Below are positions 2 to 47,973 of a stretch of DNA of 64,000 nt, piece after piece; position 1 is the stretch's first letter, and the number at the start of each line of letters is the position of its first letter. The notes under the pieces were generated by a model. It saw nothing but the letters and a program-made list of their open reading frames with translations. It made no database searches and had not been told where the DNA came from. A program made the translations under genes and the position numbers. This stretch comes from Eukaryota sp. GEM-RC1 (taxonomy: Eukaryota): positions 868,001-932,000 of the forward strand of contig JAUFOQ010000017.1 in the NCBI GenBank assembly GCA_040285855.1, given 5' to 3'.

Positions 2-2900
2 AATACTTCTGAACAAGAAAGTCGTTCCCGTACCATCAAAACATATATGAAACTTGTTGTAAAGCTTGCTGATAAGCATGCAGTTAACTTGTCACTTGTT
101 CTTCTTCCTTATGGAACATACAATTCATGGAGAACTAAATCCATCCACATAACGGAAGTGTCAACATCTGACTTACCAGATGATCTTAAAAAGGGTACCA
201 TGGATTTTTGCCTCAACTACAAATCAGCCGTTGCCATTGTGCTAGATGTTGATCTAGAAACTGTTCATCTCTTTCCTTTTGATGGTTCTTATGAGAAGCG
301 TGACATATCTCTTCCACTTCCTTCAACAACTTCAACTCTAAATCATCTTAAGGATCTACTCAAAGACGTTAAACGAGTTACAATTGCTCGTTCCCCTCCT
401 CCTCCTCAGCCTCAGTCTCCTCCTCTTTTACATGATTGTGACAATACTCGCTTTGACGATACTCCATCGCAAGTCGTTTTTCCTTCACCAAAACGTCGTA
501 TTGATAACTTCGCAATCAATCATATTCATTCTATTTTCTCTGAACCATCTGAAATAGTTCCTGTTCCAGTCAGTGATAATGCTAATTTATCTAAACCTAT
601 GAAACGCAAAAAACAACGTAACCCGTTGATTCTTTCTGTAGATTTAATCAGTGATCAGTTTTACATAAATTCAAAATTAAAATTTGAATTTAGTGATATT
701 GAGAAAATGTTGACAAAGGATGATAGGGAAGGTAAAACACAACTCTTGTTGAGTTCTGAACTTGATTTCATTGTGATGCTTGCATTCCAAAAATTTAAAT
801 CAAGGAGGTACAAATTCCTGCAATCTCAAGAAACTCAACAGTTGGCAGGTGATCCAATATGCTATGCCTTACATTCTGGTAAGGCTATTGTCGATACACT
901 AAAATCAGGAAAAGAATTCTTGCCCCATTATGTTTGGTGAAAGAACATGTTCCTGGTGATGCAGGATCTGGTCATTGGATTCTTATTGAATTGTTTCTAA
1001 ATGAAGCAAATGTTTTATTATTCAATATTTATGATTCTTTGGATTATTCATTAACCACTGAATTAATCGTTAATCCTTTTAGAACTGTTTATGGATGTGG
1101 GGAAACAAATCTGTTTGCAAGATTACCAGAGTATAAGGTGGACTACTATATACCTTTTGCACAGTCAACATCGTCTCTTATCTGTGGATGGATTGTCTGT
1201 TTGAATGTTACTTTAATTTTACTAGGATTAATGGTTGATGCACGTCAGGAACAAAATCAGACAAAATTAAACACTAACAGATCAAGAAAAAATCTATGTC
1301 TTGTTATGTATGATCTACTTCAGAGTGTACAACCTAGAGATGGGAGCCGGCTAAATTTAGCCGGCTCAGCCAACTAGCCGAGCCAGCCGGCTGTCCCAAA
1401 TTGGAAATATTTCCAGCTGCAAGCCGGCTGGCTCAAATAACTTTTAGCCGGCTCAAGCCGATTATTGAAATTTCATTTTTGACAGCTGAAATATTTATAA
1501 TTCGTTCATGAATTGATACAAACATAACATTGCAGGACATTAAATATTAAAACTAAAGAATTTCTATAAAAATAATCTTTATCAACATTAGCACAATAAT
1601 CAGCAGTTTACATTCTTCACATCAATTTGCAATGGACATTACTTTGGTCTCTGACAATGAAGAACCTATAGAAGTATCTCAAAGCAACTCTTCCAACGAC
1701 ATAGTTTCCTTAGAACTCCTCAAGCCTCTTCCCAAAGATATTGCTCCTTTCTTCCAACAGGCGGCCAAGAAACTCCCAAATGGTGATATAGAAGTGCGTA
1801 CTGAAACCATCGAATGTAAATTTTGTGTCTCTAAGCGCTACAAGTCATCGACAGCCACAGGTAACTTGCGTTCTCATGTGAGAAAGCACCATAATAAGCT
1901 CTATGAATCTGAAGTTCCTCCCCTTAAAAAGAGTCGACAAATAACTGAATATCTTCAGCCAACAGAACGCTCCTTCAAAAAAGATCCAAGTGGAGTAATT
2001 CCTCTCATTGTTGATCATATTCTTGCAGGAAGTTAGACATCCGCTATTAACACGCCTTCAGGAGGAGTATAGCAGTGAAAATGGAGGAAGAGAAGTGAGA
2101 AAGAAGACCAAATCCTTCAGAGCTAAGCTTAAGATCATCAAAGAATCTGTGTCCCAGAACAGTACCACAGATGAACGTTCTGACTCTGAGGATCTATCAG
2201 TTGAAAAGGAGTTAGATACGTATCTTTCTATGTTTTCGGCCGAGAATGACAATCCCTTAGATTGGTGGAGAGTAAACTCTGAAAACTTTCCTCTGATGAG
2301 CAAATTTGCAAGGGATATGTTAGCTGTTCAAGCGACCTCCGTTAGTAGTGAACGATTGTTTTCACAAACTGGTAACGTAATAACTAAGAAGCGTTCCCGG
2401 TTAGATGACACCACGGTAACTGCATTAATGTGTTTGCGGTGCTGGCTTTTGAACGAAGAAGATCAGAAAGACGATGAGTAGAGTAGCGATAATTGAAGAA
2501 TAGGGTAGAATTTATGTATAACAATAATGAACCACATAAAACAAATCTATCAAAGAAAAGACACTGAAAGCATATGCTTTGACAAAACAGTTAAACAATA
2601 AATCTACATCAAACTCATTGCGGCTGAGCCGGCTAAAGCCGGCTTGAGCCGGCTAAACTATGTTGGAAGCCATAGCCGGCTAACTAGTACCTGCAGCTGA
2701 GCCGTGAGGAAAATTTGAGCCGGCTCCCATCTATAGTACAACCTGACTTGGTGACAGAACAAAATGTAATTGATGGTTCAACAACAAAATTTGAAAACAA
2801 ATCGTCAAAGACAAAAGACGAAAATGAAGTTTTAGGGAAAAAACAGGAAAACGAAGAATTAAAACCACTGCAAGTGTTTTTGGAATCAAAAAGACTTTAA
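2..2900 (+). CDS. Ulp1/SENP-like (peptidase C48) cysteine protease, 5'-truncated by the window edge, frameshifted near 925-935 and interrupted by a hAT element
   Basis: Frame is open from base 2. Triad motifs GSGHWILI, IYDSL and AQSTSSLICGWIVC. Removing 1335-2735 plus one TSD joins ...LLQSVQP to DLVTEQNV... (ORF ending 2900) in frame. Two homopolymer +1 indels (cccc, ttt) would restore FLPIMLVKEH. Confidence 0.75.
1335..2735 (+). mobile_element. Non-autonomous (internally deleted) hAT DNA transposon
   Basis: 18-bp TIRs TAGAGATGGGAGCCGGCT / AGCCGGCTCCCATCTATA (1 mismatch), 8-bp TSD GTACAACC at 1327-1334 and 2736-2743, many subterminal GCCGGCT motifs. Confidence 0.95.
1632..2481 (+). pseudogene. 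hAT transposase remnant: BED zinc finger joined to the C-terminal dimerization domain, catalytic core deleted
   Basis: CKFC...LRSHVRKHH (BED) in 1632-2036; PLDWWR...LAVQATSVSSERLFS...RSRL (hATC) in 2008-2481. Confidence 0.9.
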
Positions 2901-3378
2901 AAAAATGAATTGACAGTGATAGAGAATAAATAGTACAATATAGATGTATTTATAATTTTGTAAAACATATAAGAATAACACAGCAAATAAACAATAATAA
3001 TTGTACAATATTACAATGTTCAATTTTGCAGTTTGAACTGTGTCAGACGTAGTCTGAATACCAATGTTTTGTTACATAGTTATTACACACAGAACAATCC
3101 GTGAATTTCATCCACCTGAAATCTGACAGAAATTTGTTACAGATTTAGTATGTCAGAAAATGTGACATATAAAACCAGACCAATTTGTTACATATTCAGT
3201 GTAGATGTGGTAGCATAGTTTATGTGAAAAATCATGGTATAAATTATAAATTTAGACCAGATAAACCCAATCAATCAACTTCTTCGTTGATTGATAAATA
3301 AAGAAAAAATTGTAATAAAGACTTATAATTATTATATTGTTCTACATAATAAAAAAACATCAATGAATTATTGAAAGA

Positions 3379-3860
3379 CTATATAAAATCAAGTGATTGC
3401 AATCCTGAGGGTCTAAAGAAGTGTTTTTCCAAATTTTGCTTTTTGTCCTTATCACGGATAGAATCGTAAAAGACAACGATTTTTTGATTATGTTCATACA
3501 AATTGTAAACATGTCTGGCATCATTTGGCAGATCAAAGATTATACAAAGATCAGCCCGAACAGAATGGTTAACCGCTAATTGAGTAGTACTGATCAATAA
3601 AACAGGATCAGTCTGTTCATCGAATATTTTCAGACTTGATGTAATCTTTCGTGGTTTTCCACCCTCTAGTGTCACAACTTTAAAAGCAACCTCAGAAACA
3701 AGCCTTGAAAGTTTCCTTACTTTTTCAACTGAATCAGTTGTAATTACAACTTTTGTAACTCAAATATAGTCAACAAATGCTTCACCTTGTTGATTTTTTC
3801 ATCAACACTCCATCTAGATGAAAGAAACTGAAGTCTTTTCGTCGTATCAATGTCGATGGG
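3379..3860 (-). other. Degenerate DEAD-box (eIF4A-like) helicase C-terminal domain at the polyprotein C-terminus
   Basis: EKINKVKHLL...VITTDSVEKVRKL...FKVVTLEGG...PVLLISTTQLA...LCIIFDLPND follows the HELICc layout, but motifs V and VI (ARGxD, HRxGR) are lost. Confidence 0.55.
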
Positions 3861-6615
3861 ATGAGCACTTTCTTCAACAACAGGAATCTCAACTTGTTGA
3901 ACTTGTTGAGTCGATTGAACAGTTAAAGCATGTAGTTCAAGACTTCGTTGTTCGTAAATATTTTTTGAATCACAAGAGCGAACATCATGAACTTCTAATG
4001 GTACACCAGAAATACCAATCACAGATAATGCTGAAAGCATTAACAGTGTTCCATCCTTTTCAGAACAATGAAAGAATTTAAATCATTGCAAAAATCGATT
4101 TTTAACAGTTGACCTGTTAACTCACCACTTGAACAATCAATAATAAATTGAATCTGTTTCTTTGGTAGTTTCAAACCGAAACCAACACAGAACCCAAATT
4201 CCGTGATGTACATTATTGTGTCATAATGCTTAACATACACTGCATCTATAATTCTGTCATCTTTGTGACAGGAGCAAAATTCCCATACAGGTTGTTCACC
4301 AAGCAGCTCCCTTTCATACAAGTCTAACTTTCGGATGGAACAAGTGCCGACAACTAGAACGAAATCGTCATAGCACTTCAAACTTTTGAATTCTTCGTCA
4401 CGATCAATTTCAGACATGTTTAAATCCATTAATGTTGATAATTCTGAACAATTAACACAATTTTTTCATCTTCCTGCACAAAAATGATCAACAACAGAGT
4501 CTTCGTTGCGACAACAAAACAATTTTTGCAGCAGCCATGTCAATACATTGAGAATCAAAACTGTCTCTGGCCAACGGCAACGGTAATACTTGTCGAATAG
4601 TCTTTCGTTTGTCTGTTTTTGGCTTGTATTGAATCATAAATATGGGCCCTTCAAAAGCAATCAGTATGGCCTGGTAAAGCAATTGATGATGAAGTGCAAA
4701 CATAGTCAATTGATTGTCAAATGGTTTACACTGTGGTCTATCATCATCAATACTGCGACTGAACCTTCGGAGTTCTTTATCAATGTTGTAGACTACAAAT
4801 CGTAATGTAACATTCAACACAGGAGTAGGAGTAGGAGTAATAGCAGAAAAAAATTCTGTATGGAGAGTTTCGACAACGTCGTTGTCTATATTCAACGTTC
4901 CAATGGCAATTTTTGATTCAAATGAAAAAACAACATAGAAAGTTCTCATTTCTTCACGTGTAAAATTTAAGATTTGAACATTTTGTCCTAAATATTTAGC
5001 AGTATGAGAAGAGGCAGTACAATACGACTTAGTCCAAGATGACAAATCCAAAGTACTTGTAGCTACTGGTGACTGGGGCAATGCAGTAGTTTCACTAATC
5101 ATGGGTTCAGGAAGGTCAGCGTTTTCGGGGATCATAGGTTCTTCAACCTTGTGTTGGGCTAAGGTAATTTCAGAATTTACTACTTCATTAAGTGTAGTAC
5201 ATGATGATGCACATAAAGGACACGCAGGATCAAAGCACATCAACAGGTCCTGTTCATCATTGACTTGGAAATTTAGTAACTGGAAATGATGTTTCCTTCC
5301 ATTCACATAATCCACGGTAACTGGTGGACTGTTACTTTTCAGTAAGTTGAAATCAAGAATAATAATGTTGTCATACCACGATTTCAACACAGTTATGGGA
5401 ACCTCACCTTGTTCCGTTAAATATACCAAAATACGTAATCGATTGATACATCCAAAGGTGGATTCGATTGGTAACTCATGATAAGGCCAGTAAACATTCC
5501 AGACACGTTTTACCTCAAAAGATCCATGAATATCCAGCTCATTACTGTATGCAATTAATTGTTTGAACCTCGAATCTTGACAATGCATTGGTGTACCAAC
5601 CTTGATAGATGGCTTTGCCATTTCCGAAACCAAATTGATATTGAAGTTCATGAGCCATACGATGAACAAGTATTGAAAAGAAGAAGGAATATGAGACAAG
5701 AATTGTGGAAACTTATCACCAACAGAAATACCATTATGATAACCTAGATCTGTAGGTACAGGGAACAGTGATTTGGCACATTTAACTTCCTTGGACCACT
5801 CATTATCAATACGAGTGTATTGAGTCAAATCACTACAAGGACTTGACATAATGTCGAAAGTTAATTTAATAGAATTTCTTGGTATATGCAAATGTACGAT
5901 ATTACCCCACTGTAACAATTGGTTGTACATGTTCCAAAATTCTGGGCCATTGACAACTTTCAATGCCATTGATAAATTGAATCGTGATTTGATAATGAAT
6001 CTATACCAATCAAGATGGAACGTAAGAGAAAAATTTTTTAATGAATCAAGAGTTCCACGGCACTTGTTGACAAACAGTAGATTTTCAATTTCAGTTGTAT
6101 TCTCTGAATGCAACATAACAACAGTGCTTTCGGTTTCACCTGGAGCTAGATCTGAAGTAATTTTAACTTTTGAACATAATGTCTCTGAAGGAGTACTGTC
6201 ATCATCACTGTCATTAACTTTTAGAGATTTGGAAGATTTGACAATTTTTGTTCATCAAACAATTTCTTTATAAAGCTGTTAAATTTTTTCCATTGACATA
6301 ACCTTCCAACTTCAACCTAACTGAGAATGAATTGTCTACTACAGTTGAATGGAATGACTTATTGGGATAAGAAGCCACAATGGCTTGAAAGAGAGACGTC
6401 GTTGAATTTGGAGATTCAAAAGAGAAGAGAAGATTGTTGATTCATTTCGAAACTTATTGAGTGTAACTTCAGAAGGATTTGATATGAAATTGACAAGTTT
6501 TAGAGCAATGCCTTCCAATGATATTAATTGATTTTTGAGATGAGTATTAGAATCTTCCATATCCACGAAACGTGAAACTAAAGATCTTAGTTCATTTAAA
6601 TATCGCTCTAGTTTT

Positions 6616-8513
6616 TCAAAAAACTAATTTAGATAAATTCTTAAGGGCTTGATCATTAAGGGTTTGATCACGTGTTGGGACAATATCCAGATTTTTAATA
6701 AATTCGCCACATAAAATGTAATGAACCAAGGATAATTTGAAAAACATGTCTGAACGTACAACTTTAGATTCTTCAATAGTAGAGAGTTGTTTGAGTAAAG
6801 GAATCGATTGTGAAAAGGTATACAAATCGTAAAATGACATAAAAGTTGTACGAGAGCAACGAATGAACGACATAGAATTGATACCCGCAAGAAGAATCAA
6901 TCCAGGACACAGGTAATTGTTTGTTAAACAGAAAAATAAAAACTTGAAGTTGTAGAATGAAATATTGGCATTGGTGCAAATCTTTCCGAGATAAGTAAGG
7001 GGAGAATTTAGTTGGTTTTTTGAAAGAACATTAGTGCGGAAAAGAACATCAACCGAAGACATGATGTTCTCGCTAGAAGGAACATCAGGCAGTTGACTGA
7101 TGAAAAATTCAGGGGGATTTGGACGATTACTGATTAAAAATTGAGGATTTTCAGCGATCTGTTTGATTGTTAACAATGGCTCAATCAACGAACAATTTAG
7201 AATTTCTGGTTCGTCGAAATGCAATCTCGAAGTTCCATTCGGATATAAGTTTGTCTGCACAAGACGTAACGAAAGTCCAGGAGAATTTCTTCCAGCACGA
7301 CCAGAGCGCTGGTCCAAAGAAGCAATGGAGCAATGATGAGTGTCGAGAAGGTCATCTGCATCAGTTTGCTTTGACAAACCACAGTCAATGACAAATTTGA
7401 CCCCATCAATAGTCAAGGAAGATTCTGCTATATTGGTAGCAATGACAATTTTAAATTGTTTTTTCGCTGGTTTAGCCACAGCTGCATCTTGTTGGACTGA
7501 ATCCAGACTTGAATACAACGGATACACACCTGGCTTCTCAGAAGAAGCTGGGATGTATAGACCACCAGATCCACTTTTTTCTGACTCTCATACTCATTCT
7601 CAATAATATTACTGAGAGTTGTAATTTCTGGACTTCCAGGAAGAAACACGAGCAAAGTAAATCCTGTACATTCTGGTTCAAACTGAAAAAGCTTCTGAGA
7701 CAGGGAGTAATAACAGAGACATAGTCGGGCTAACGCTCTGAAATTGATACTTTTATATGAAAGAGGATTACAGTGTTGAGTGAAATAGTCGTAGTATGAG
7801 TTCACATTGAAGACAAAATAAGTGTAAATATCAATAAAATGATCGTTGAAAACCTGTTGAAGTGTAGGTTCAAATATCGGAGTTATCACAAGTTTTGATA
7901 TTAAGGGACTATAATGAAATTCATTTTGACGAACAAAATTCACATCAAGGACAATCAGTGGATTGGTTCTTCCAGCTGCATGGATAGTATAGGAGGGTTC
8001 GGTATCTAAATAATTTCCTTGTGTAAGGTAATTAAAACAAGGATTAGGTTTGTCCATAGTTGCCGAACAGATTACCACTCTCAATTTTGAATCAGTTTGG
8101 GAAATTATTCTCATTTGTGCTAATAAAATGTCAATGTCACATTTTCTTTCATGAACTTCATCCACCATGATAGTTGCAAATCGAGACAGATTGCTATTAT
8201 TTGTCAGAAATTTAGAAGTGAAGGCAGCGGTTTGAACTTCGATAAATCTTGGTGAATGTACTGGAATGTTCGTATTCTTGTTGCCTGTTCGGTATCCAGA
8301 CAGAGGAAAATCACTATGACATAAATCATTGATAAAATCGGAGAGTTTTGTGGCTGGTAGAACTCTAGGTTGACACACAATGATTGGTTTCAAAGTAACC
8401 ATAACCACAACAACACCAGTTAAAACAGATTTCCCGGAACCTGTTTGACCAGAAACAATAAACGGAATAATATTGTTGTCTTTGACATGATTTTGACCAA
8501 CAACACGAAACAA
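6616..8513 (-). other. DEAH/RHA-family RNA helicase domain (frameshifted near 7530-7590)
   Basis: GQTGSGKS, QPRVLPA, DEVHER, SAT, LVFLPG, ATNIAESSLTIDGVKFVIDCG, QRSGRAGR. Confidence 0.92.
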
Positions 8514-9672
8514 TTGTTAAAAAGTGTCTTTTCCTTCATTAACAAATGCAATACGGCAGTTACGTGCTTTTGAAATCAACTGAAAGCAAGAAAACACCAA
8601 GTGGAAGTAGGCGTCATTACTGTCAACTGTATTATTCCACTGTTCAGTTAGTGTCAAAATTTGAAGAATTTGTGTTAGTAAATCACTTTCGCGGACATAA
8701 GATTTCAAATGTGCTAATTTAGAGCATACTTTAGGAAAATCAATTGATGTAAATGTACACGTTGGTTCCTCTGGTGAAGTCACAGTGCTTGGGAAATTGT
8801 AAACATAGCGGGGAGGTCGTCTCCATTGAAGATAATGATCTAACAACATCTTGTAATCACTATGATTTGACGCCAACCATGACAATGAGACTAAGTATTC
8901 CATTGCCTGGAAACAGAAAGACATTAAAGAGAGATCTTTGTTTTCTTTTTTTTGTTCATAATGGTAATGGGCACAAAATGACAGTTGGAACATGAGCATA
9001 CTCATAGTTTCAATTTTGTTTTCGAAAAAATCTTGATATACAGTAAACTGATGTCGGTAAACTTCTTTCCGTTGTACAACTTGTTTAGTTTCAGGGTCTT
9101 TAATTTCGACAATGCGGCTTTCTTCATCTGTATCCACAAAAGTATAGTGCTCGAGAAAATGACAAAAGTTAAAAAAATCTTGAAAGTAATTGAGAAGTGT
9201 AGGACGAATCTCTGATATTATTAAAATCATCCCGCATAATACTAAGAGAAGTTTGATTATATAGATCATCAAATCCGTCATCATTTAAAGGATCGTCTGT
9301 AGGATCGTCAGTATGTTCAAAATCAGAATCTTTGACATCAACATCAGGTATTTTGGGGGCTTCTTTTTCAATTAATTCAATAACATGAGCAATATCAAAG
9401 ATTAACATTTTGAGTTTATAAGTAGCTTTTGACTTTGCAAACTTTTCAATCACTTTTTGGTTTTCTTTGTACATTTCCAAAGTAAATTGATTATTCGTAC
9501 GATCATACACTTGAAGGTTGAGTTTTTTCTCCTCCACAACAAATTGCAGATGAAGCATTGTTAATAAAATGTCCAGCATAACCTCAGGACGTACCAAAAC
9601 TTTAGGGTTGATATTTTGATACAAGGATGTGATACTTAATGAAACATCACTAAGTCTAAAAGTTTGGAAGGG

Positions 9673-9714
9673 ACATTCATTATAACTGTGACCAGGAAGA
9701 AGGCAGAAGAGACA
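9673..9714 (-). other. CCHC zinc knuckle
   Basis: CLFCLLPGHSYNEC = C-x2-C-x4-H-x4-C. Confidence 0.8.
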
Positions 9715-10419
9715 TGGAGCAATAAAAAGGCAAAACGATTCACGAAAAGAAGGTTGTTTTTGAGGACAATGGGGAGGCATCTCATATTTGAATCCAAGAG
9801 GCATAATCGGTAAACTCACAGTAGATTCTCGATTAGGGTCACACAATTGACACCAATATTTATGGAGGGATTCCAACGCTCCATCATAACTGAGCAAGTA
9901 ATGATTAGCATCTTGTTGACATTCAATCAACTCCGATTCATAGTGTTTGGCCATGATGTAATTTTCAATTCTCCAATTACTTGGCGTGTCACCAGGTTTG
10001 CAACACTCTTGTATAATTTGGGCCAGGAACGAGCGTCGTGATTCATTGTCTGGATTGGGAATGACATCTGGAGCGAGATCAGTTAAGTTTTCGGATTCAT
10101 CTATAAAAACATGATTCATACATGAACAAACTTGGAAACCAGGTGTTCTTCCAGATCTTAGCACTGGATGGGCAAAAGTTTCATGTGGAATACGGCAGTA
10201 ACGATGCAATATGCCCATGTGGTATTTAGTTCTTTGATTATGTTTCTTTTGTTTTAGCTGAGTTTCTTCTGTTAGAGTTTCTTCTGTTGGCGGTTCTTCT
10301 GTTGGCAGTTCTTGTGTTGGCAATTCTTCTGGTAGCGTTTCTGGCAGAGATGGAGGAGGCGATGGTGACACAGAAGTTCTTCTGGGTCTCTTTACTTCTG
10401 GGGATGGTAAACGATCATG

Positions 10420-10470
10420 GGGACCTGGATTCTGCTCAACGTCTCCATCGATAGAGAGATCACGTTTCCA
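10420..10470 (-). other. 2A-like ribosomal skipping (StopGo) peptide
   Basis: WKRDLSIDGDVEQNPG|P matches the D(V/I)ExNPG|P consensus exactly, with a typical upstream WxRDL. Confidence 0.88.
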
Positions 10471-10471
10471 T

Positions 10472-11401
10472 GATGTGGACGAGAGGATAGAGCACAGAAT
10501 AAGCGGAGACGACATCTTAGGACGAGGAGGGAAGCACGTATCCACACATTTCTTCAACCCACCATCCATATCCCGTGACCGTGCTATGGAAACAGTGTTT
10601 GGATGATGAGATGAAGCAATGGCGGATGTGGACGAGAGGATAGAGCACAGAATAAGCGGAGACGACATCTTAGGACGAGGAGGGAAGCACGTATCCACAC
10701 ATTTCTTCAACCCACCATCCATATCCCGTGACCGTGCTATGGAAACAGTGTTTGGATGATGAGATGAAGCAATGGCGGATGTGGACGAGAGGATAGAGCA
10801 CAGAATAAGCAGAGACGACATCTTAGGACGAGGAGGGAAGCACGTATCCACACATTTCTTCAACCCACCATCCATATCCCGTGACCGTGCTATGGAAACA
10901 GTGTTTGGATGATGAGATGAAGCAATGGCGGATGTGGACGAGAGGATAGATCACAGAATAAGCGGAGACGACATCTTAGGACGAGGAGGGAAGCACGTAT
11001 CCACACATTTCTTCAACCCACTATCCATATCCCGTGACCGTGCTATGGAAACAGTGTTTGGATGATGAGATGAAGCAATGGCGGATGTGGACGAGAGGAT
11101 AGAGCACAGAATAAGCGGAGACGACATCTTAGGACGAGGAGGGAAGCACGTATCCACACATTTCTTCAACCCACCATCCATATCCCGTGACCGTGCTATG
11201 GAAACAGTGTTTGGATGATGAGATGAAGCAATGGCGGATGTGGACGAGAGGATAGAGCACAGAATAAGCGGAGACGACATCTTAGGACGAGGAGGGAAGC
11301 ACCTATCCACACATTTCTTCAACCCACCATCCATATCCCGTGACCGTGCTATGGAAACAGTGTTTGGATGATGAGATGAAGCAATGGCGGATGTGGACGA
11401 G
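10472..11401. repeat. Six near-identical 153-bp (51-aa) tandem repeats
   Basis: Unit start GATGTGGACGAG at 10472, 10625, 10778, 10931, 11084, 11237 and a partial at 11390; only a few substitutions. Confidence 0.97.
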
Positions 11402-11511
11402 GCGAGGGGTGTTAGCAGTATAATAGAAGACATTGGAGTGGGAAAATTATGGAGCTGTAAACAACTAAATTCCATTTGTCTTTATTAAAAACATTTAAAT
11501 AAACACAAATA

Positions 11512-11941
11512 CTAGAATTCAATATCATTAAAGCAACAATCATTGCCATTAAAACTCACATCAGCTTTTTCTTCATAAAAAACACTGAGAGCTAATAGAG
11601 CTTTTGAAATCATGATAGGAATTGTTTTAAATATTGTAAAAACAATACGATTCAACCAAAATTTGAAATCAAATTTCTTGTTCATTCATTTTTGACCACT
11701 TTCTCAAAATCAGAGAGAAAACAAAGAGCATCTCTACCAAGTCGACCATAAATTGAAATTGCAAAGGACATAATTTGTACTCAACATGTCTAATATGTTT
11801 GAGAGCAGTCAGTGGTTCCTCATATTTGTTTCTCTTGTATTGTTCTGAAGAATTCAGTGGAGAAACTTCATTTTTAGCATCCTTGAATGCACTTTTTTTG
11901 CAAACATCCACAGTAATCACATCAAAAACATCTGTAAACAA
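11512..11941 (-). CDS. Small hypothetical protein (frameshifted)
   Basis: ORF 11669-11941 plus a coding-like tail ...ALLALSVFYEEKADVSFNGNDCCFNDIEF* ending at 11512. Confidence 0.3.
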
Positions 11942-12060
11942 CTATACTGTACAGATAGAACAAGGAATTCTCATGACTTCACAAATACATTTACAAGGAT
12001 CGTTTTGTGTACACTTTTATTTTCTCTTAGATACAAGTAGAACAATTTATTACTGTGCGT

Positions 12061-13768
12061 TTATTCTAAATATTGTAAAGAATGATGATGATAAAGTAAA
12101 ACATAGCCATTTAAAGAAATCTCAGTTAATACTGTCTGTTTGTCTACACCTTTCTTGCAATCACTATTGGTATCATGTAACCACCAAGAACCTTCTTTTT
12201 CCTTTGCATATGTCACACAGTGACCGTCAGCAAGGGAATCGTAATGACAGATCGCAGACAGCAGTCTGTATGTGTATTTTTCTTCAACACTACTTTTGGT
12301 CTTGGTTGACACTTTGGCGGTTCAGGTTCGACTGGTACTTCTTTCCCAATCACTACCTCTAACAAAATGCTGACTCCCACACTTTCTTTCATTTTCATTA
12401 GAAATGTCAAAGACAGACAATTCTTCTGATGTTGGATAATGAGACAATGTGTAAATGTCCTTAAGTGGCAGTTGTGAGTTGATTTCATTGGTAGGGGAAA
12501 ACTCAATCGATTCTGAACCCAATTGTGCTTCAGAAGACAGGAATAGATAGAGTGATAGATTTGAAGAAATAGTAACTGGTTGAGGATGTCCAGTCAGTCT
12601 AATGATAAGAGCTTTTGGAAGAGAAGCAAAAGTTTCAGTAATTTCTGATTTTTGTTCAGGACAAGTAGCACAAATTATTTCTTTTCGAAAAGGTAGATGA
12701 GCTTGCAACAATGATTCGAGATCGGTTGGTCTAGAAGGATACCGCCTTTGGATACTTTCCTTGTTAATTTCCAAGGCGAAGTGAATTTTAGATGTCGGAT
12801 CAGTCCCACACCAAGAACATTTTGTTGTTGTTTTAATACAGAAACAAAATGCATTAACAGCACAAGAATGCTTTAATTTTTGAGTTATCAACAATTGATC
12901 TAAATCTTGCTGAAGTGATGATTTGACATCTAACTGAGTCTGAACTTTTTTTGGTGATGGTTTCTCATCTAAATCATATCCATAATATTGGAAGTCTGTA
13001 GTATCAGTTTCTTCTGATTCAGACTGTGGTTCAAATTTTTGACAAAGAGTGTAATTCATCATTTGATGAAGATGGCAAGGTGGTGCGGAATTCCTTGTCA
13101 AGTGTTTTTAAAAGTTTGGCAAGAAAATTGAAAGGATCGTGTTGACCCGCCGCAAACACAGGATAAATGTCAGCGATTTGCGCACGAACACCTTCAATAT
13201 CTTTCGTATAAAAACAATTGAAGAGAGGAGTAGCAGAAGTATCAAAATCTAGTTCTTTGAAATGATTTACATTGAGTTCGAAGAAACGTTCAATGTGACG
13301 TATAATAAAATGGATAACTGAATAGACATAACAACAATCAGATGAAGTAGAAATTGAAGGAGTAGTAGTTTTAACAGGAATGGCAAGAGCCTCGTTAACT
13401 GTTTTAGTCAAACTGGAAAGAGAAGAAGGGGATACAATCAGGTTATGAGATGAGAGGGTGGTTTTTACGATGAAAGATATCACGTCGCTAATACACTGTG
13501 TATCTTCAAGGGGAGTGATTGCACGAAGATTAGAGGACGATGCTAAGCTGAAAAGGAACTTTGTTTGTGCAACGTCTGATGTTACAAGAACGAGATTGAA
13601 ATGGTATTGAATATGTCCATTATACACTACGACAATGAAGAAGTCGCCCGCAGTGTCTTGGACGATGACAATTTCAACATCTGTAACTTCCGCAGGAATG
13701 TCATTTACGAAGTCTAGTTGCATCTGTTGTTTGGGAAAACGTTGGCGGACACGGAATGATGTTGACAT
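12061..13768 (-). CDS. Ubiquitin-specific protease (USP, peptidase C19), frameshifted into four pieces
   Basis: Cys box CCYVYSVIHF, GQHDPFNFL, fingers CSWC/CATC, LPKALIIRL, His box YRLLSAICHYDSLADGHCVTY, WWLHD. Confidence 0.82.
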
Positions 13769-13940
13769 GTTTGTACAGAGAGGAAAATTTATGTCCTAGT
13801 CTATTATTACAACAAAGATTCCATTTTTGACTTTCAATCAATACAATAGGGTGGGTTTATTCATTCCGTGATGAATTTGTCATTCACGAGGATTAATGTT
13901 TTACTATAACTAACTAATACAGGATTAATAAAGGAACCAG

Positions 13941-15493
13941 TGAAGTAGAAATTGAAGGAGTAGTAGTTTTAACAGGAATGGCAAGAGCCTCGTTAACTGT
14001 TTTAGTCAAACTGGAAAGAGAAGAAGGGTTAGGCAAAATCAGGTCTTGACACTTAATTCGTGGAAGTCGCCATTGATTATTCGTACGATCATACACTTGA
14101 AGGTTGAGTTTTTGAGAAAGTTCCCACACTAAGAATTTAAGTGTCGGCTGCCACAAACCTAAGAAATCTTACCAACATAAACGTGTTCAAAAATTTGTTC
14201 ACTAATCAGTCTGTTGCTGGGTTGAGTACAAACAAAGGATGGCCCAGAACAATGAGCCTTAACTTTATTAATTATCTTGTGACTGGTTCTTTTCATGATG
14301 AGAACTACAGATTTACTTGAAGATACTAAAACAATTTTTTAGTAACGAAAAAGTTTAAATCAAAAACATTCTGTATGAAGAGTTTCGACAACGTCGTTGT
14401 CTATATTCAACGTTCCAATGGCAAGTTTTTGATTCATGTGAAAATCTGGATCACCATATTGGAGAGCAAATCTGTGGACCAAGTTTTGTTCACTTCGTTC
14501 TTTTCTTGAATACTGGGTAAGGCGTCTACGTCTAAAAAATTTCTCTTCATAGAAACAAGCCTTGAAAGTTTTTGGAACTGAATCAGTTGTAATTAAAACT
14601 TTTTATAACTCAAATACAACTGCACTTGTTGATAAACAGTAGATTTTCAACATCCACTGCCGTAGCTTTGATGATGCAGCCTCCCTATCCTTATCTAACT
14701 CAACTCGAGACTGACTCCATTGCAGGGTTTCGGGCTCAGTTGAGTTTAGATAGTCCCAGTATGAAAGGCCTTATTACTTTATGCAAAATTCTGTCTATTA
14801 ACAGGACAGTGATTGATCTGGATATCTCCCCCAACTTAATTGATATTGAAAGTCACATTTTCATTTATGTTTTTCACCAACGAATTTTGTTCCCAAAGAA
14901 GCGGGGGTGGCAGGATTTGAAGAGGTGATGTATATGACATAAAGACCATTTACATCTGTTGATCTACTCTGCTTCTGAATTGTACAGAGGAACGAAGATA
15001 TACCACCAAGCTATTGCTCAAGATGTTCCCATTGTGACTTTGAGAAGAAGAGCAGAGAGAAATGAAACAGAGGGAACGAAGAAAGTTATACAGTATGGCC
15101 GATGCACGATTACTGATTAAAAATTGAGGATTTTCAGCGATCTGTTTGATTGTTAACAATGGCTCAATCACGATGGAACGAAGAAAGTTGTTATACAGTA
15201 TGGCCAAGACAAATCACAAGACAACCATACTTCTCAGAGGACAATCTTCAAGTGGTTCAATGCAACGTTAAGCGGATCTACGAAACATACAATGCAAGAG
15301 GCATTCAGCAAGAATCAGTCAGAAATCCAGTGTTTTCAGCAGAGGAGATAACTGAAGGAGCATCATCACAGAAGAAGTGGATAAAGAGAAAACCACGGAA
15401 CAACACATTCCTTCAACCCACCATCCAAATCCCGTGACCGTGCAATGGAAACAGTATCTGGATGGCGGAATTGAGAAATGGCGGATGTGGACG
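13941..15493. repeat. Patchwork of short direct copies of neighbouring genes
   Basis: 13941-14028=13343-13430; 14072-14113=9486-9527; 14368-14436~4853-4920; 14551-14616~3694-3766; 14622-14650~6060-6088; 15106-15170=7123-7187; 15401-15493~part of the 153-bp repeat. Confidence 0.92.
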
Positions 15494-15933
15494 CAAAGCA
15501 AAGCAATGAGTGCAACCACGATACACCAGATGACAACCCAACTCATCTTGCCCACTTGTCGAGTGCAGGAGACAAATTGACAAGAAGAGCGGAATTGCCA
15601 TCTATGTAAAGAGGTCACTTCTCATAGATATACGTGGCAGCAAGCACATATCGTGACCAAAACTTACTTTTGGCATCATCACAATGTCTATAGTTAGAAA
15701 GATGGAGGATCATACGCATGTCAAGAGAGAAGAAAAGTGAAATTGCAGTATTCATTTTTGGAGTCTTGTCTTGTTTGTCTACAGATAGCAGACATCTTTT
15801 CTGTCTTCGGATATCTCCTACACTTCAAATACAACATTTTTGTACTTACTTACTTGACATCATTCATTAATTAATACATCAACAATGTTATTTTCAATGC
15901 TCTTGTGTATGACAACATTGACAATGCATTGAA

Positions 15934-17320
15934 CTAGAACGTATATGTTGATTTCGTGTTAACAAGGAAGAGACTTGAAACAAAAGAAGAACGGGATGCT
16001 TTATTGATATCTAAACAAAGAAAACTACAATAATGATCTATAAAAACAAATTTAAATCGCATATGGTGTATGAGGCTAGCAGTATCACGAGTAGTATCAC
16101 CAGCAATTCGAATAGCTCTTTCAATTACTGGGGTGGTGGTTTCACGAAGGGCGGAAGCAACTGCACTAAAGATGAGTTTTAAATCGCATATGGTGTATGA
16201 GGCTAGCAGTATCACGAGTAGTATCACCAGCAATTCGAATAGCTCTTTCAATTACTGGGGTTCACGAAGGGCGGAAGCAACTGCACTAAAGATGAGTTCA
16301 AGTTCCTTCTCGTCAAGTGAATGCTTAGAGTTTGCTAAAAGAGTAGTCACTGCCTCATGACCAGTCTTGACAACGCTGTCAACGTCAACAATCTTCTTAG
16401 GTTGAGGTTCAGTTATCTAGAATTAGATCAGTGGATTCATGTATGAAAGAAAAGTGAACCTAGACCTTAGACTTCACTTCACATCTTCGGAGTCCTATAC
16501 AAGACCATGCACACTTATCTCATTCAATAAACAACATCTTCTTTATTTTGTTCTACTTGCCAGTTGTTTCTGCAAAACAGGTCCTACATTTAACTTCTTT
16601 ATCTCTAACTTCTTTCTCTTATCGCTGCCTGAGATAGGCTTTTCCTTTCCACACTGATGTCCCAAAGTCTTGGAAACAAGTGATCCTAGGGAGGATTGAA
16701 TTTCATCGTATTTAGTAGGAGTGGAAGGAGCGGATTCGGTGGGAGAGTTACGAGAGGACTTTGTGAGAGGTTCTGGAGTTGTGGCTTCTTTGCTCACAAC
16801 TTTAGCTTCTTTAAGGTGCTTGTTCTTTTCTTAACAATATGAGTTCTTTCATGAATAACATTAGGAGCAATTGAATAAAACTCAGAAAGATCTTCGTTTT
16901 CTTCAGCATTCATACCATACACTTTCTTAAAACGTGAAGAAATGTCTGGTACTTTTGCGCCTTGGGAAGCTAAATATTGAGTTCTAGAATTAATAAAGTG
17001 AACAATATTCTCAAAAAGTCTTCCTTAGACTGTACCAAGTCTGAGAGGAATTCATCATTGTTGGTACTTATAGAAAGTCCATCGGTTGAATTGTCACGAG
17101 GTCGTGAAATTAGAATATAATCCCCATTGGGACCGAGCTGAACACTTTTACCATCCACCTTTGTCGATGTATAACTAAAGACGTTATAGACATCCTGGTG
17201 CTTGTTCATATTCTTTCTTCGGAAAGCGTTAGAGCGTCGTTTCTTGTTATAATTGACAGACATAGACGTTGCATCATCTGAAGACTGAAATGAGAGTGAA
17301 TAAAGACATACAACTGACAT
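15934..17320 (-). pseudogene. Fragmented hypothetical ORF(s)
   Basis: Run of short minus-strand ORFs (16970-17320, 16543-16797, 15934-16251); no recognisable motif. Confidence 0.3.
16051..16298. repeat. Tandem duplication of ~125 bp
   Basis: TTTAAATCGCATATGG...CTAAAGATGAGTT occurs twice; the second copy lacks 7 bp. Confidence 0.93.
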
Positions 17321-17362
17321 TGGATTTTTGCCGGAAAAATATTTTCCTTCACTATCAATTCA

Positions 17363-18161
17363 ATGACCAACAATATCTTACAAGATTGTTTGGCAACATT
17401 CTTTGAAACATATCTCATTCAACAAATACAAGCATGTGGGTGTATCAAATGCATGGCCATAGGAGAACTTAACTCTCTTGACAAATTGACATCACTTTTG
17501 TCTCACATACATCGTATGAGCTTTCATCCAAATCCTGAAGATGACTTAACTTCTTTATCTCCTTTACTTTCAATCTGCTCACATATACTAGCGAAATGTA
17601 AGACGATCGATTCCATTGTGGAACGTGGTATTCAAAATTGTTTGTTGTTGTTGTAGTAGTGTAGATGTTGAGGGAATGCTAAATTGTTTTTCTGTCCTGT
17701 TATTTGTACTTGCAAATTCTTTACAAGCAATGTATAACACGTTGTTGATCACAAAGTGTGAAAGAATATTGTTTCTCAATGATATTTCCGAATTTCTTTG
17801 GAGTATTAATGATCGACAGTGTCTAGTTAAAGTATTGACAGTTTTGCTACTATCCTTGAATGGTGATGAATGTAGGGAATTGTTACTTACTGAAGTATTC
17901 CAAGAGTTTACAGGATGTTCTGAAACATTGACAGATATAATACTTATGTGTGAGAACAGTCAAGATGAGGAGTTTGTTGACATGTCCGTTGTTGTTAAAA
18001 GGGTGTCTTCGTTGTTCAACTTGTTTGATGTGAATGAGATTTGTGAATGTGATGCAGATTGTGACAAGGAGTTTGTGAGTTTCATTGATTCATTGCTTAA
18101 GTATAAAGAACAGTTGTATTTTATAACAAATAGCAATAAGGAGATTACATTCGACATATAG
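17363..18161 (+). CDS. Hypothetical Cys-containing protein (frameshifted)
   Basis: Overlapping ORFs 17363-17656 and 17616-18161 with coding-like composition. Confidence 0.4.
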
Positions 18162-18618
18162 AGAACACAAATCGGGGTGTTCTACTTCTACGAGGAACAT
18201 CAGCTGTGTAGGGAGGAGGAGGAATTACCTTGGATTTAGTGAAACAGAAGCAGAAGGTACCTTGTCTTCAGATAGAATGGCATCAACGAGGGCTAGGAGA
18301 GAGAACTCATGTTTGATTTGTAAGATCAAGGGGGTGACTTTAAAAGACTCGGATATGAGTTAGAGTGCTCGAAAGTAGTCCAATGACACGATACATTGCT
18401 CTATTTCATCAAGATCGATCCCAACACCAACATCACGTTTTACATAGACATATAATTTGACATATGAGACGATAGAAAGCTCATCATGATAGAACAAGCT
18501 TCTAAGAATTATGTACGACCAGCATTTTCCATAAAGTGGAGGTAGATATATAAATTATAGTGAAAGGAAAGTTTCCCTGCACAATCTGCATCTTAAACAT
18601 CACCACTTCACACACTCA

Positions 18619-20068
18619 ATGTCCATTATCAACACACTTACAGACGAACAGGCTCAGGTCTTCCAAGCTATTACTCATGCAAGACCTTCTAAGCGTCGAA
18701 ATTTCTTCATTACTGGTGGTGCCGGATCGGGCAAGTCTTACCTACTGTACTGTCTTAAACAGTGGTGGTCTAATGCGGGTTCCAAGCTAATGAGACCCAA
18801 TGGCCATGTCTTTTTTACTGCTACTACTGGTGTTGCTTCCACTGTCTTTGGTGGTCAAACCCTACACTCTCTCTTTGGTTATAATTTTATCCGTAATGAA
18901 AAACCAATATCTGATGTCATTCGCTCTATGCCTTCGAGTGTTAAGTCTGTTTTACGAACTATTAGTGCTCGAAATTCAATGCTTGTTATTGATGAAATTT
19001 CAATGTTGACTGCTGAATTATTCAACAGAGCCTCTGATATATTTAAAAATTTACTGAAGTCTCAGTTACCATTTGGTGGACTTCAAGTTGTAATATTTGG
19101 TGATTTTTTGCAACTTGCACCAATTGTAAAATCTGATTCAAACACACGTACTGTTCTTCAACTTTCAGACTTTACGTTTTCATCACAGTCTTGGAAGGAC
19201 TTGAATTTAAATTTTATTGAATTATCTGGAAGTATCCGACAACAAGGTGATGTCAATTTTTATAATTTTTTGAATGAAATACGTCTCGGACTTTTTGATG
19301 ACTATATGAAACATATTTTATTGAAACATAAGTCATTAGCCAAAAATATTGAAAGTCCAACCAAATTATTTGCTAGAAACAAGGATGTCGCCGACGAAAA
19401 TTTAAAGCAATTTGAATTATTATGTGAACAAGGGAATGAAAATGTTGAATTTCATTCCCTCGATAAGTTCAATGAAAACTTAATTAAATCAGAAATTGTT
19501 AAAAGTTGGGCATTTGGTAAGCCTAATGAGGAACAAATGGAAAAGGCTTTTGATTTAAATGTAAAAAAAATTATCAAGTAGGCTAAACGATTTTGCCGAA
19601 CAAAAATTTCACTGTGTCGTCGGGGGTTTGGTAATGTTTACCCAAAACAAACCAGATCAGGGCCTAGTAAATGGGTCAAAAGGCAAAATTATTGATTTCT
19701 CTGAAAGTTCACATTTCATTAATGTAAGATTCGGGAGGGACGAAGAACCAATCAAAATTATTCCAACTAAATTTGAAATTGAGGTGTTGAATGAGAAGAA
19801 AAAGCCTGTAATTATAGCATCCCGATTGCAATATCCTCTTCGTCCTTGTTGGGCAATAACAGTCCATAGATCTCAGGGTCTAACAATTGAAGGAATTGAA
19901 GTTTCCTTAAATTTTTGGGAGTATGCCCAATTGTACGTCACATTGAGTCGAGTGAAGAACTGGAACTCAATTAAAATTTTAGATATTTCTTCTAGATTTC
20001 CTAAACCAAGGATGGATCTATATCAGTGGTATTATTCCACTTTTCACCCCCCCTCGACCGGTTACTAA
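18619..20068 (+). CDS. PIF1-family 5'-3' DNA helicase (frameshifted near 19560-19625)
   Basis: EQAQVF, FFITGGAGSGKS, TATTGVAS...GGQTLHS, IDEISM, PFGGLQVVIFGDFLQLAPI, IRQQGD, GLVNGSKG, QYPLRPCWAITVHRSQGLTI, YVTLSRV. Confidence 0.95.
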
Positions 20069-20081
20069 ACCTCTTTATCCT

Positions 20082-21067
20082 TTGCCATTAGAAGATGAAA
20101 GAATTGTTAGAAATTGGCCTTCTGTGTTGAAAACTTTTGATGAATTTTCGTCCAATATTATTTCTATTGTTGGTGAAAGTATGGAAACTGTTGATGTTCT
20201 TGATCCAGTCAATGAAGAAATTGAGGAAGATTTGGTGGAAGATGTTCCAAAAATTCAAAATTTGAATACCACTTCTGATTCAGTTTTAGAATTACTCGAT
20301 AATGAAGTTGTTGTCTCTGGAAGTGATAGTGGAGATGATGAAACTGATGATGATGACGATGCGTCGTCTAGTATGAATGATTTTGTTGTGAATGATGACG
20401 ATGAGTGTTTCAATAATCAAAGTATAAGTGCCATCAATTCTGATTTAATTTTTCACAAACCTGTGCCAAAACTGAAAAAACAACAGTTACTACTTTGCCT
20501 AAATTGAGACCAAATCTATTGTCTCGAAATACTCTCAAACCAAATTCGAATTTACCTAGTTTGAAATTATCAAAAAAAGTTACAGATCATGAGGACACTG
20601 AATCTATCAACAGAATAACAAATTCTCTTGGTCTTCAGACAGATTTTGAAAACAACTTGAACAATACTCATAGTATTGCAATGCAGACAGAAACAAAGGT
20701 TCTCACAATTGTCCACAATATTGTACCACTGCACTGGAACCAAAATGATACAACATCAGATTGTCTTCCAAATATGAAATTGAAACTTCAGTTGTTAAAA
20801 GATTTAAATTTATTGATGGCGGAAATTTTGAGTTTTCATTTGAATGATAGGGACAAGTACTTTAATGTGTTGTCGTTGACCAATACTTTTGTTATGTCGA
20901 TATTAGATTTAAATGATGAAGTGATGTGTGATGAACAGTGTTTAGGAATATTGGATGAATTTCGTGAAGTGATGTGTGAGTATTGTTGTGGGATTGGATA
21001 TAAGGAGTCGTTTTCGTTGGCTGTGATGTTTGCGAGGGTGATGGGGGGATATAGTAGTGTTAGTTAA
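20082..21067 (+). CDS. Acidic/low-complexity extension, probably the C-terminal part of the PIF1 gene or a separate ORF
   Basis: ORFs 20082-20507 and 20495-21067 follow directly, with breaks near homopolymers. Confidence 0.4.
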
Positions 21068-21165
21068 GTTTGATAAACTGAGGTTGTATATTTTATTGGT
21101 TGTGTTTAAAAAAAATATCAATGTCTAGGTCAACAATTCATTACACATACGACACTTTCATTACA

Positions 21166-21518
21166 AATGTTGTAGTTACAAATGTTGTATCACCAAATGT
21201 TGTAGTTACAAATGTTGTATCACCAAATGTTGTAGTTACAAATGTTGTAGTTACAAATGTTGTAGTTACAAATGTTGTAGTTACAAATGTTGTAGTTACA
21301 AATGTTGTATCACCAAATGTTGTAGTTACAAATGTTGTAGTTACAAATGTTGTATCACCAAATGTTGTATCACCAAATGTTGTAGTTACAAATGTTGTAT
21401 CACCAAATGTTGTAGTTACAAATGTGGTATCACCAAATGTTGTAGTTACAAATGTTGTATCACCAATTGTTGTAGTTACAAATGTTGTATCACCAAATGT
21501 TGTCATTACAAATGTTGT
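21166..21518. repeat. 15-bp minisatellite, 23 units plus a partial, two main variants
   Basis: AATGTTGTAGTTACA and AATGTTGTATCACCA interspersed. Confidence 0.97.
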
Positions 21519-21918
21519 ACATGTAGTTATAACTTGGTGTCTTTGTGTCTTCTGATGAATGAAGCTTCATGGACTTGATGTCGTTGACCTTAGTCTCATT
21601 CCAGATAGCATCTGATAGAATTGAAAAATGCAGTCAAAAACGACTGAAGACACAGCAGTGTATTACACGATCAGAGTTGTAACAAACCAGCAGAGTTGTA
21701 GCAAACCTTAGTGTTTTCCTTTGGAGGATAAGATGTCAATGTGATGTACGTGTAGTAGGATGGTTGTACAACGTTGAGTTTATTCATGACATGGTTGAAC
21801 ACGGTTCACAAGTCTAAGAACGAACACCTGCAAACACGTCTCTATCTTGAAAGAAGCTCAACACTGGATATCAAACGATGTATGGAATCCATCAAAGAAG
21901 GTATAAGTGAATCAGTTT

Positions 21919-41307: not shown

Positions 41308-41603
41308 TGATGGGGAGCGAAAAATTTGGAAATTTTTCACTTCTTTGATTTCCAGGAATATTAATCAAATGTTTTTGTCTATAGGATAATTGCAAATCTC
41401 TTTTTTATGTGATTTTGTATGTCACAATTAATCATTGTACTACTGTATAATTAATTCTCCGTAGTGAGACCAGTGAATATTACTGACAGCACTATAAAGT
41501 CACAGTTTCAAAAGCTGTTGATACCAACCTTGTTGTTTGAGATTGATCTTTAATTAATGTGGAATTTCTTCAGTACCTGTTTGATGACAACTGTGACTGA
41601 ATT

Positions 41604-41652: not shown

Positions 41653-41698
41653 TAAATCTTAGAATTTTACATCTTCATAACTGTGACTTATCCTTTCC

Positions 41699-43978: not shown

Positions 43979-44055
43979 ATTTTTTGTTTTGTTTATTATT
44001 GTGTTTTTTTGTTAAATATTTCCAGTTTTGTTTCTATAAACACATTGGACTGTCC

Positions 44056-47313: not shown

Positions 47314-47973
47314 CTGATGATGCTCAACTTTCTCATCATTTTCCACTTCCAAGGAGGATATTTCTAGGAGTTGTTATTAAACATACCTGACATAGTTTTG
47401 ACTGACTCATATGATTAACACTGTCAACCAAATTCCTCTAGGGCTCCAACCTGCTTTTTTCTTAGTCCCTATTATCATTGATACATTGAGTTAGATTATG
47501 TTGTTCTACTTTATTCATGAGTTTGATTTCTTGAAACTCACTATGAATATTATGTCAACCACATAGTAGACAATGGAGCTTGACATTTGAAAGTCAGTTA
47601 TTGAACCCAGAAAAATTGCATCAACCAACATCACTTCAAACAGACTTCGAATGTTGGTGTTCATCATTCTACTCTTTCAACGTATTCAACTACAATGTAC
47701 TTCTTTATTGTTGGGTGATTTGATACCAAATAAGAGCTACTAAACAAACAGTTTACCATATACTAGGGCAACAACAGCTTTAGATTCTCAGTCTGTTGAT
47801 CCGAATGTACCCTTTTATCGATATAACCCCTGCTTTTCACAGTTTCTTGTATGTTCCAGACCTATTAAACATCAACTCTACTGAACAGTTTGAGCAGATT
47901 TGGAGATAGAACGTCTAAACAAAATCCCAATCATTTATGGAAAAACAAACCAATAACTACATAACATACATTT

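Follow-up and report, generated by a model that had tools for sequence, protein, structure and literature searches.

A window of 64,000 nucleotides (nt) from Eukaryota sp. GEM-RC1 (contig JAUFOQ010000017.1, positions 868,001–932,000; coordinates below are those of the window) carries on its minus strand a chain of stop-to-stop open reading frames (ORFs), running from 11481 to 3379, that encodes a tandem leader array, a StopGo/2A peptide, a divergent DEVH helicase and a long C-terminal region. Our best explanation, to which we assign a probability of about 0.6 on the strength of the sequence, is that this is a disrupted copy of a lineage-specific multicopy gene in which an N-terminal 2A peptide frees a leader and a proline-initiated giant DEVH helicase protein continues. 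The ribosome would skip at NPG/P and release a leader of variable length, and translation would then resume to give a giant protein with an initial proline, built around a divergent DEVH (DEAH/RHA-type) helicase. Since the 153-nt units of the leader array appear to be duplications of the gene's 5′ end, the 2A would yield one uniform mature N-terminus whichever unit's ATG is used. The mature protein, with the basic cluster KRPRR near its new N-terminus, may be nuclear and act on RNA or nucleic acid. A preliminary description of this DNA had presented an unusual 2A-processed helicase product; what we find is not a singular polyprotein but one disrupted copy of a GEM-RC1 family of 31 gene models.

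The 2A peptide carries the argument. GDVEQNPGP is encoded at 10443–10420 on the minus strand, in a reading frame of the form ...MSSPLILCSILSSTSWKRDLSIDGDVEQNPGPHDRLPSPEVKRPRR..., and the G–P bond predicted to be skipped lies between 10423 and 10422. DVEQNPGP conforms to D(V/I)ExNPGP, the core octapeptide of StopGo/2A peptides, and is accompanied by the upstream context of the published motif 4; the perfect DVExNPG/P motif first described at 10420–10470 is thereby confirmed, and it holds the single NPGP among all six frames of the window. Octamers of the type (D/G/C/N)(V/I)ExNPGP are expected 1.5e-4 times per window and occurred in none of 300 shuffles. The extended upstream match is the main argument for 2A activity because the core motif by itself is reported to be insufficient and to need a suitable context (PMC3708506). 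Judged by eye rather than with a profile, WKRDLSIDG agrees exactly with six of the eight specified positions (W, R, D, L, D and G) of the motif 4 signature WV(R/K)DLTx(acidic)G given in PMC12846837 and departs from it at two, with S in the place of T and K in that of V; the G at p11 and the D at p12 both agree with that motif. In rabbit reticulocyte lysate, one example of motif 4 is described as reaching almost 100% StopGo (PMC12846837). By sequence, with both the core octapeptide and the motif 4 context in place, the 2A of the window is a bona fide StopGo element.

The 2A could also be an inactive relic, either captured from a virus or retroelement or present by chance, with translation of the helicase starting elsewhere or the whole family dead. 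Breaks do occur somewhere in every copy examined, and the gene models measure 121–1629 amino acids (aa) against a chain of more than 2,300 aa, so that most models are fragments. The insufficiency of the core motif alone (PMC3708506) and the finding that many eukaryotic 2A-like peptides lower protein abundance instead of skipping (PMC13405545) are also in keeping with a relic. However, chance is excluded by the expectation given above, the upstream context required for activity is present as well, and the coding signal begins at the leader. The frame is moreover open on both sides of the motif: in the window the nearest ATG gives 31 residues up to the predicted break and a further 417 codons follow without a stop, and it is likewise open in the paralog models P0122, P0128 and P0134, that is, in four of four copies. 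On balance we hold a relic to be very unlikely.

Upstream of the 2A lies the leader array. Tandem Repeats Finder reported a period of 153 bp with 6.1 copies and 99% matches at 10472–11401, and full units start in frame at 11433, 11280, 11127, 10974, 10821 and 10668, which together bear out the six 51-aa repeats of the preliminary description. A seventh unit starts at 10515 and passes after 15 codons into the 2A instead of completing itself. The first unit is divergent (MSSIILLTPLASSTS...), while the five later ones open with ATG (MSSPLILCSILSSTS; MSSLLIL in one) and each contain a second in-frame ATG; an additional in-frame ATG lies at 11475. The leader has a hydrophobic start (PLILCSIL). Each unit combines 108 nt of upstream sequence with the gene's ATG and initial 15 codons, and it is because every unit holds its own start codon and these 15 codons that we read the array as a tandem duplication of the gene's 5′ end. 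With the units taken as 5′-end duplications, the 2A becomes N-terminal behind a 31-aa leader, not a separator between two evolved domains, and its earlier placement between a repeat domain and a helicase is not supported. An N-terminal position is typical of the eukaryotic 2A peptides described in PMC12338488, PMC4981915 and PMC3708506. The paralogs P0122, P0128 and P0134 carry 7, 3 and 3 complete units, respectively, each 47 or 51 aa long (141 or 153 nt), followed by the identical leader, again of 31 aa, and the 2A. In all four known N-termini (window, P0122, P0128 and P0134) an identical 2A thus stands behind three to seven units.

A true two-product polyprotein, in which the six 51-aa repeats form a functional protein that the 2A splits from the helicase and that arises at a fixed ratio to it, would account for some of these features. 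In four of four copies the array runs open in the 2A frame, both unit lengths are divisible by three, stops interrupt the unit in its two remaining frames so that the 2A frame alone is open, and a diverged unit at 15379–15493 (81% nucleotide identity) still encodes a protein 61–65% identical in the same frame. Against this stands, besides the presence of the gene's own start in each unit, the codon-usage score (for which seven intact genes of the window served as training set): it stands near −0.04 across the units, climbs to between +0.1 and +0.5 at about 10545, and from there tracks the ORF chain to 3495. The four nucleotide differences read between units of the window are all protein-changing and one of them is a stop, in the fourth unit, which terminates translation begun in units 1–4. 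The number of units varies between copies, and no family, fold or relative was found. We therefore consider a polyprotein unlikely; the array is probably a translated-through 5′ duplication and not an evolved protein.

Beside the array, a 129-bp repeat found at 11474–11602 and again at 53575–53703 (91% identical) holds the 3′ end of a 57-aa ORF, with its final ~30 codons and the stop, together with an AATAAA. At 11474–11602 it stops about 40 nt short of the 2A gene's first in-frame ATG, which leaves little space for a conventional promoter outside the units.

Downstream of the 2A, the predicted proline-initiated N-terminus would begin PHDRLPSPEV..., and the KRPRR cluster may be read as resembling a nuclear localisation signal. 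The cluster is followed by P/E/T-rich repeats and by a Cys/His-rich region (Table 1). The latter contains the CX2CX4HX4C spacing of the CCHC knuckle proposed earlier at 9714–9673, and the pattern is kept in P0122, P0128 and P0134; the knuckle is confirmed in part, as a match of spacing, and Pfam zf-CCHC (PF00098) gave no match at E ≤ 10 on 27-aa and 77-aa pieces around these positions. The region after the 2A had no relatives among representatives of 326–1038 aa, the paralogs that carry it sitting inside the cluster of P0002. It had no match in the PDB sequence search, its best Protein Atlas score was an unusable 0.81, and the AlphaFold2 model of P0134 was likewise unusable, with a mean predicted local distance difference test (pLDDT) of 37.

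The helicase has motif I (GSGKS, 8450–8427), motif II (DEVH, 8162–8151), motif III (SAT, 8069–8055) and motif VI (QRSGRAGR, 7311–7288), the set that defines DEAH/RHA helicases of superfamily 2 (SF2). Pfam recognised DEAD (6.7e-6) and Helicase_C (2.3e-11), the NCBIfam HrpB profile matched at 1.4e-40, and the top PDB matches were DHX37, Prp16 and DHX36 at about 1e-16. The core is accordingly as complete as had been proposed, with motif II reading DEVH and not DEAH. The PDB alignments reach query residue ~221, about 120 residues past RecA2 and into the winged-helix/ratchet region; for P0122, Pfam listed neither HA2 nor OB_NTP_bind. An insert of ~150 aa separates motif III from RecA2. In a tree of 31 rows hand-picked from named database matches, the remaining matches being omitted, the family forms a branch of 2.2 substitutions per site placed beside DHX29/DHX57/DHX36 with a weak support of 69%. 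Its cellular rather than viral character, as suggested from the outset, is supported by the DEAH/RHA type and by comparison with viral sequences: a viral contig collection held no relative and a phage collection only three distant HrpA/B proteins.

The family comprises 31 NCBI gene models on at least nine contigs of 1.8–4.0 Mb. The helicase fragment matches three GEM-RC1 clusters (97%, 68% and 97% identity) holding 14, 5 and 1 models, or 20 in total, and the next match beyond the GEM-RC1 clusters has an E-value of 2.6e-18. The C-terminal 587-aa region belongs to a cluster of nine, made up of eight NCBI models and one 39-aa metagenome fragment, and HMMER added three further models. Two subfamilies can be distinguished that are 45–76% identical by region over aligned columns. 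Their identity peaks in RecA1 (72.5%) and RecA2 (76.3%) and all helicase motifs are retained, which argues for selection on helicase function. Metagenome scans returned nothing with P0134 and, with the helicase alignment, distant DEAH helicases alone (25–49% identity, 26 loci). No helicase orthologue was found in any other organism searched.

Searches of all chain ORFs against Pfam (E ≤ 0.01 or E ≤ 5), NCBIfam and PHROGs recovered no reverse transcriptase (RVT), endonuclease or RNA-dependent RNA polymerase family, in agreement with the preliminary description, which had recognised neither a reverse transcriptase nor an RNA-dependent RNA polymerase. The Pfam searches also found no capsid or viral-type protease, as an RNA virus or endogenous viral element would possess, and no transposase or integrase family was found in the chain ORFs. 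As the defining enzymes were not found, membership of the non-long-terminal-repeat (non-LTR) retrotransposons or of the viruses fails.

With regard to the nature of the family, we lean slightly towards a selfish or mobile element rather than a housekeeping gene family. The copies are dispersed, near-identical and rich in fragments, with deletion mosaics (P0150, for instance, is a deletion or mosaic derivative of the family), all of which favours a selfish element; the lack of a recognisable mobility enzyme or termini disfavours it. No convincing terminal repeats flank 2300–17600 and no target-site duplications were found. The family might even represent a new kind of selfish element, with the DEVH helicase as its sole recognisable enzyme, 5′ monomers that supply start codons and perhaps promoters, and a StopGo peptide that evens out the N-termini, the element itself having spread to ~30 sites of the genome, although we think this quite unlikely.

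A fast-expanding host gene family that is not mobile, for example of RNA surveillance or defence helicases, in which the N-terminal 2A would serve dual targeting or dosage in the manner of sea-urchin NLRs, is possible and would fit the missing transposase, reverse transcriptase, integrase and terminal repeats. The helicase is of the cellular DEAH/RHA type, if only weakly grouped with DHX29/57/36, the catalytic motifs are retained in both subfamilies, and the hydrophobic start of the leader recalls the signal-like 2A leaders described for NLRs (PMC4981915). Set against these points are the mostly fragmentary state of the 31 models on nine contigs, the 96–98% identity of main-family copies where compared, and the existence of deletion or mosaic derivatives (P0150 and the stretch 13935–15493 of the window). 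The neighbourhood is moreover filled with repeats (hAT, PIF1-like helicase and five exonuclease copies), and the helicase branch is long and without an orthologue in the other organisms searched. A host family is a tentative alternative, which we hold to be somewhat less likely than the selfish element.

Several observations weigh against that preferred reading. The 2A is found in four of four known N-termini, but these copies are 96–98% identical after the 2A, and the identity of the motif among them is for this reason no test of constraint; all four N-termini are moreover from the main family and none from the divergent subfamily, which is 56–68% identical. The window copy as assembled is unable to make the protein. 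Near 7580 the in-frame reading is missing from six of the seven main-family copies compared, namely from the window and from all of the six models checked apart from P0128; this points either to many dead copies or to a systematic homopolymer error of the assembly. Lastly, the TGA at 4490–4488 is common to all five copies seen (window, P0139, P0142, P0141 and P0004), so the tail beyond it may be an ORF of its own or a dead remnant.

The damage to the window copy consists of two copy-specific stops (TGA 10951 and TAA 8517), a third stop common to four paralog models, and about nine frame breaks, all of which fall at A/T runs: T7 at ~9176, A6 at ~7580, T6GA5 at ~6620, T4 at ~6415, A6 at ~6290, A5 at ~6262, and A runs near 4468, 4060 and 3755. 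At the A6 run near 7580 a −1 shift is needed to keep the helicase frame. P0128 and the divergent subfamily read through this site, and at least five models (P0002, P0004, P0122, P0129 and P0133) span it with a 38-nt GT..AG 'intron', which we regard as an annotation device because of the in-frame reading in P0128 and the divergent subfamily. An inherited frameshift, systematic miscalling of the homopolymer and a propensity to slippage are all candidate explanations for this site. Short introns as the general cause of the frame changes were rejected on the same grounds and because the breaks all lie at A/T runs. A variant genetic code was rejected as well, since no subset of stops improved the ORF statistics and the intact genes use all three stops. 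The single-copy genes of the window are unbroken, even though 10 homopolymer runs of at least six are present. Repeats are regions that short-read polishing misses. The window copy is either a pseudogene or the product of an unpolished assembly.

A single frame of ~8 kb, as originally reconstructed, is supported for one junction alone, that between the helicase and the 587-aa region, where P0149 reads continuously from the helicase C-terminal region through the last three breaks (~6415, ~6290 and ~6262); over its full length the frame would require about a dozen corrections in the window copy. Were the frames restored, the family would encode a single ORF of about 2,700 codons.

The coordinates of all features are collected in Table 1.

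Table 1. Features of the 2A-helicase locus and its immediate upstream neighbours, in window coordinates.
Feature	Position	Strand	Basis
Tail: three short frames (4465–4043, 4082–3747 and 3759–3382) switching at A4 runs	3382..4465	-	ORFs
TGA after the 587-aa frame	4488..4490	-	copy comparison
587-aa open frame, no recognisable family, first Met at 6116	4491..6251	-	ORF and family searches
End of helicase C-terminal region and bridge to 587-aa region, four frame breaks	6255..6625	-	paralog comparison
DEVH helicase core	7288..8450	-	motifs, Pfam, PDB, NCBIfam
Frame break at A6 run (CAGAAAAAAGTG)	7572..7590	-	paralog comparison
In-frame TAA where paralogs have Tyr (GKDTFYQLF)	8517..8519	-	paralog comparison
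Frame break at T7 run; paralogs read ...SRFFNFCHF..., i.e. T6	9169..9180	-	paralog comparison
CX2CX4HX4C pattern (CLFCLLPGHSYNEC), zinc-knuckle-like spacing in Cys/His-rich region	9673..9714	-	sequence
P/E/T-rich 15-nt repeats (PTEE-type), number varies among copies	10260..10342	-	repeat search and copy comparison
KRPRR basic cluster, 10 residues past the new N-terminal proline	10378..10392	-	sequence
StopGo/2A peptide WKRDLSIDG-DVEQNPG/P (WKRDLSIDGDVEQNPGP)	10420..10470	-	sequence and comparison with published motif 4
Minimal 31-aa leader, last unit's ATG to Gly of NPG (MSSPLILCSILSSTSWKRDLSIDGDVEQNPG)	10423..10515	-	sequence
Six full in-frame 153-nt (51-aa) leader units	10516..11433	-	Tandem Repeats Finder and translation
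In-frame TGA in fourth unit (TGC in the other units)	10951..10953	-	sequence
USP/UCH deubiquitinase gene in three frames	12061..13795	-	Pfam UCH 4e-8 on 12061–12321
Mosaic of shuffled 42–116-nt element fragments, 81–100% identical	13935..15493	-	sequence comparison

The 587-aa region has no match in Pfam, NCBIfam, PHROGs or the PDB and no usable match in the Protein Atlas. An exhaustive HMMER search of 1.84 billion representatives returned five proteins, all from GEM-RC1, and the AlphaFold2 model (9 alignment rows, pLDDT 26) is unusable. A reading of its C-terminus, FEGPIFMIQ, as a Q-motif was dropped for want of profile or PDB support. In the tail all three frames have a positive codon-usage score. 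The degenerate second helicase C-domain proposed earlier is confirmed in part, as a weak eIF4A-III-like remnant in the last frame (3759–3382), where all nine PDB matches are to eIF4A-III RecA2; these have E-values of 0.08–0.26, and Helicase_C scores 20 bits (E 8.6e-4), under the 23.5-bit cut-off of Pfam. The two upstream pieces gave no match in the PDB sequence search. A DEAD-box (eIF4A-like) core was not recognised in the tail: Helicase_C is sub-threshold, motif VI is absent and nothing was found before Helicase_C.

In eukaryotic genomes, N-terminal 2A peptides have been described in non-LTR retrotransposons, in NLRs and in a small number of further protein classes; what they are for is still debated. 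Three recent surveys of 2A peptides (PMC12338488, PMC12846837, PMC13405545), whose supplementary tables may list cases, do not use the word "helicase" in their main texts. A 2A ahead of a DEAH/RHA-type helicase would be a new context for these peptides, and the variable array of start codons suggests a role for it in normalising the N-terminus produced from heterogeneous 5′ ends. The locus also adds a repeat family of ~8 kb that is confined to this unclassified eukaryote and includes about 2,000 residues to which no assignment could be given.

The sea-urchin NLRs, whose N-termini bear 2A-like sequences of 26 aa (Roulston et al., 2016, PMC4981915), offer one comparison. As described for Strongylocentrotus purpuratus, they share a short N-terminal peptide (26 aa there, 31 here) ending in D(V/I)ExNPGP, a large multidomain protein of cellular type, an expanded gene family and a hydrophobic leader start. 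They differ in having NACHT/LRR domains in place of the DEVH helicase; the motif 4 context and the tandem duplication of the leader, three to seven times, are further differences found here. APE-type non-LTR retrotransposons (L1Tc/Ingi, Rex1, L2 and CR1; Odon et al., 2013, PMC3708506) are reported to be likewise multicopy, with a 2A near the start of a long ORF and copies in varied decay, and L1Tc shares the ending -EQNPGP; in contrast, no endonuclease or reverse transcriptase was found in any frame of the present family, which has no 3′ poly(A) or microsatellite tail and is not a member. The viral motif 4 StopGo peptides (PMC12846837), which correspond to the class B with tryptophan in Rao et al. 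(2025, PMC12338488), have the same arrangement of W-x-(R/K)-D-L-(T/S)-x-acidic-G followed by DVExNPGP, from which the GEM-RC1 peptide departs in its eukaryotic genomic setting, as against the polyprotein of an RNA virus, in K for V after the W, in S for T and in Q rather than S at p15.

Among helicases, the family shares motifs I, II (DExH), III and VI with the DEAH/RHA proteins DHX36, DHX57, DHX29, DHX37 and Prp16 and with bacterial HrpA/HrpB, and is set apart from them by its long novel N-terminal region, a C-terminal extension of more than 900 aa, the insert described above and the length and weak attachment of its branch. Mouse LINE-1 elements have a variable number of tandem 5′ monomers of ~150–200 bp in a multicopy element. 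The variable tandem units at the 5′ end resemble these monomers, and differ in being in frame with the ORF and in each having start codons.

Upstream of the leader array, the last piece of the USP/UCH gene contains the His box and ends 580 nt from the array. Deubiquitinase domains N-terminal of a 2A are reported in a preprint for some non-LTR ORF2 proteins (PMC13405545). The mosaic further upstream contains pieces of a leader unit, of 7187–7120, 6088–6030, 3766–3694, 4928–4847 and 9527–9486, and of the USP gene (13448–13336); a deletion derivative, a repair scar and an assembly artefact are all candidates for its origin. The locus is flanked on the plus strand by a hAT remnant (dimerisation domain, 3e-26) at 2–2481 and a PIF1-like helicase (1e-32) at 17592–21067, both in broken frames, and tandem repeats lie at 16051–16298 and 21161–21519.

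The window as a whole is eukaryotic and intron-poor DNA with 36% GC, and its genes include intronless Sec24, TYW2 and BTB next to the hAT and PIF1-like remnants. Rfam and tRNA scans of the window returned no non-coding RNAs, and no mention of GEM-RC1 turned up in a literature search. A second multicopy family is represented by five ~2.3-kb copies of a DNA_pol_A_exo1 (3′–5′ exonuclease) ORF at 27458–29770, 36462–38860, 38873–41351, 50712–53084 and 58764–60687. They are 80–88% identical, some intact (700–820 aa) and others split into three frames. The window also holds two inverted, intronless Sec24 genes (41657–44008 and 47941–50290), which encode 763 and 777 aa at 97.75% nucleotide identity and both contain all five Sec23/24 Pfam domains.

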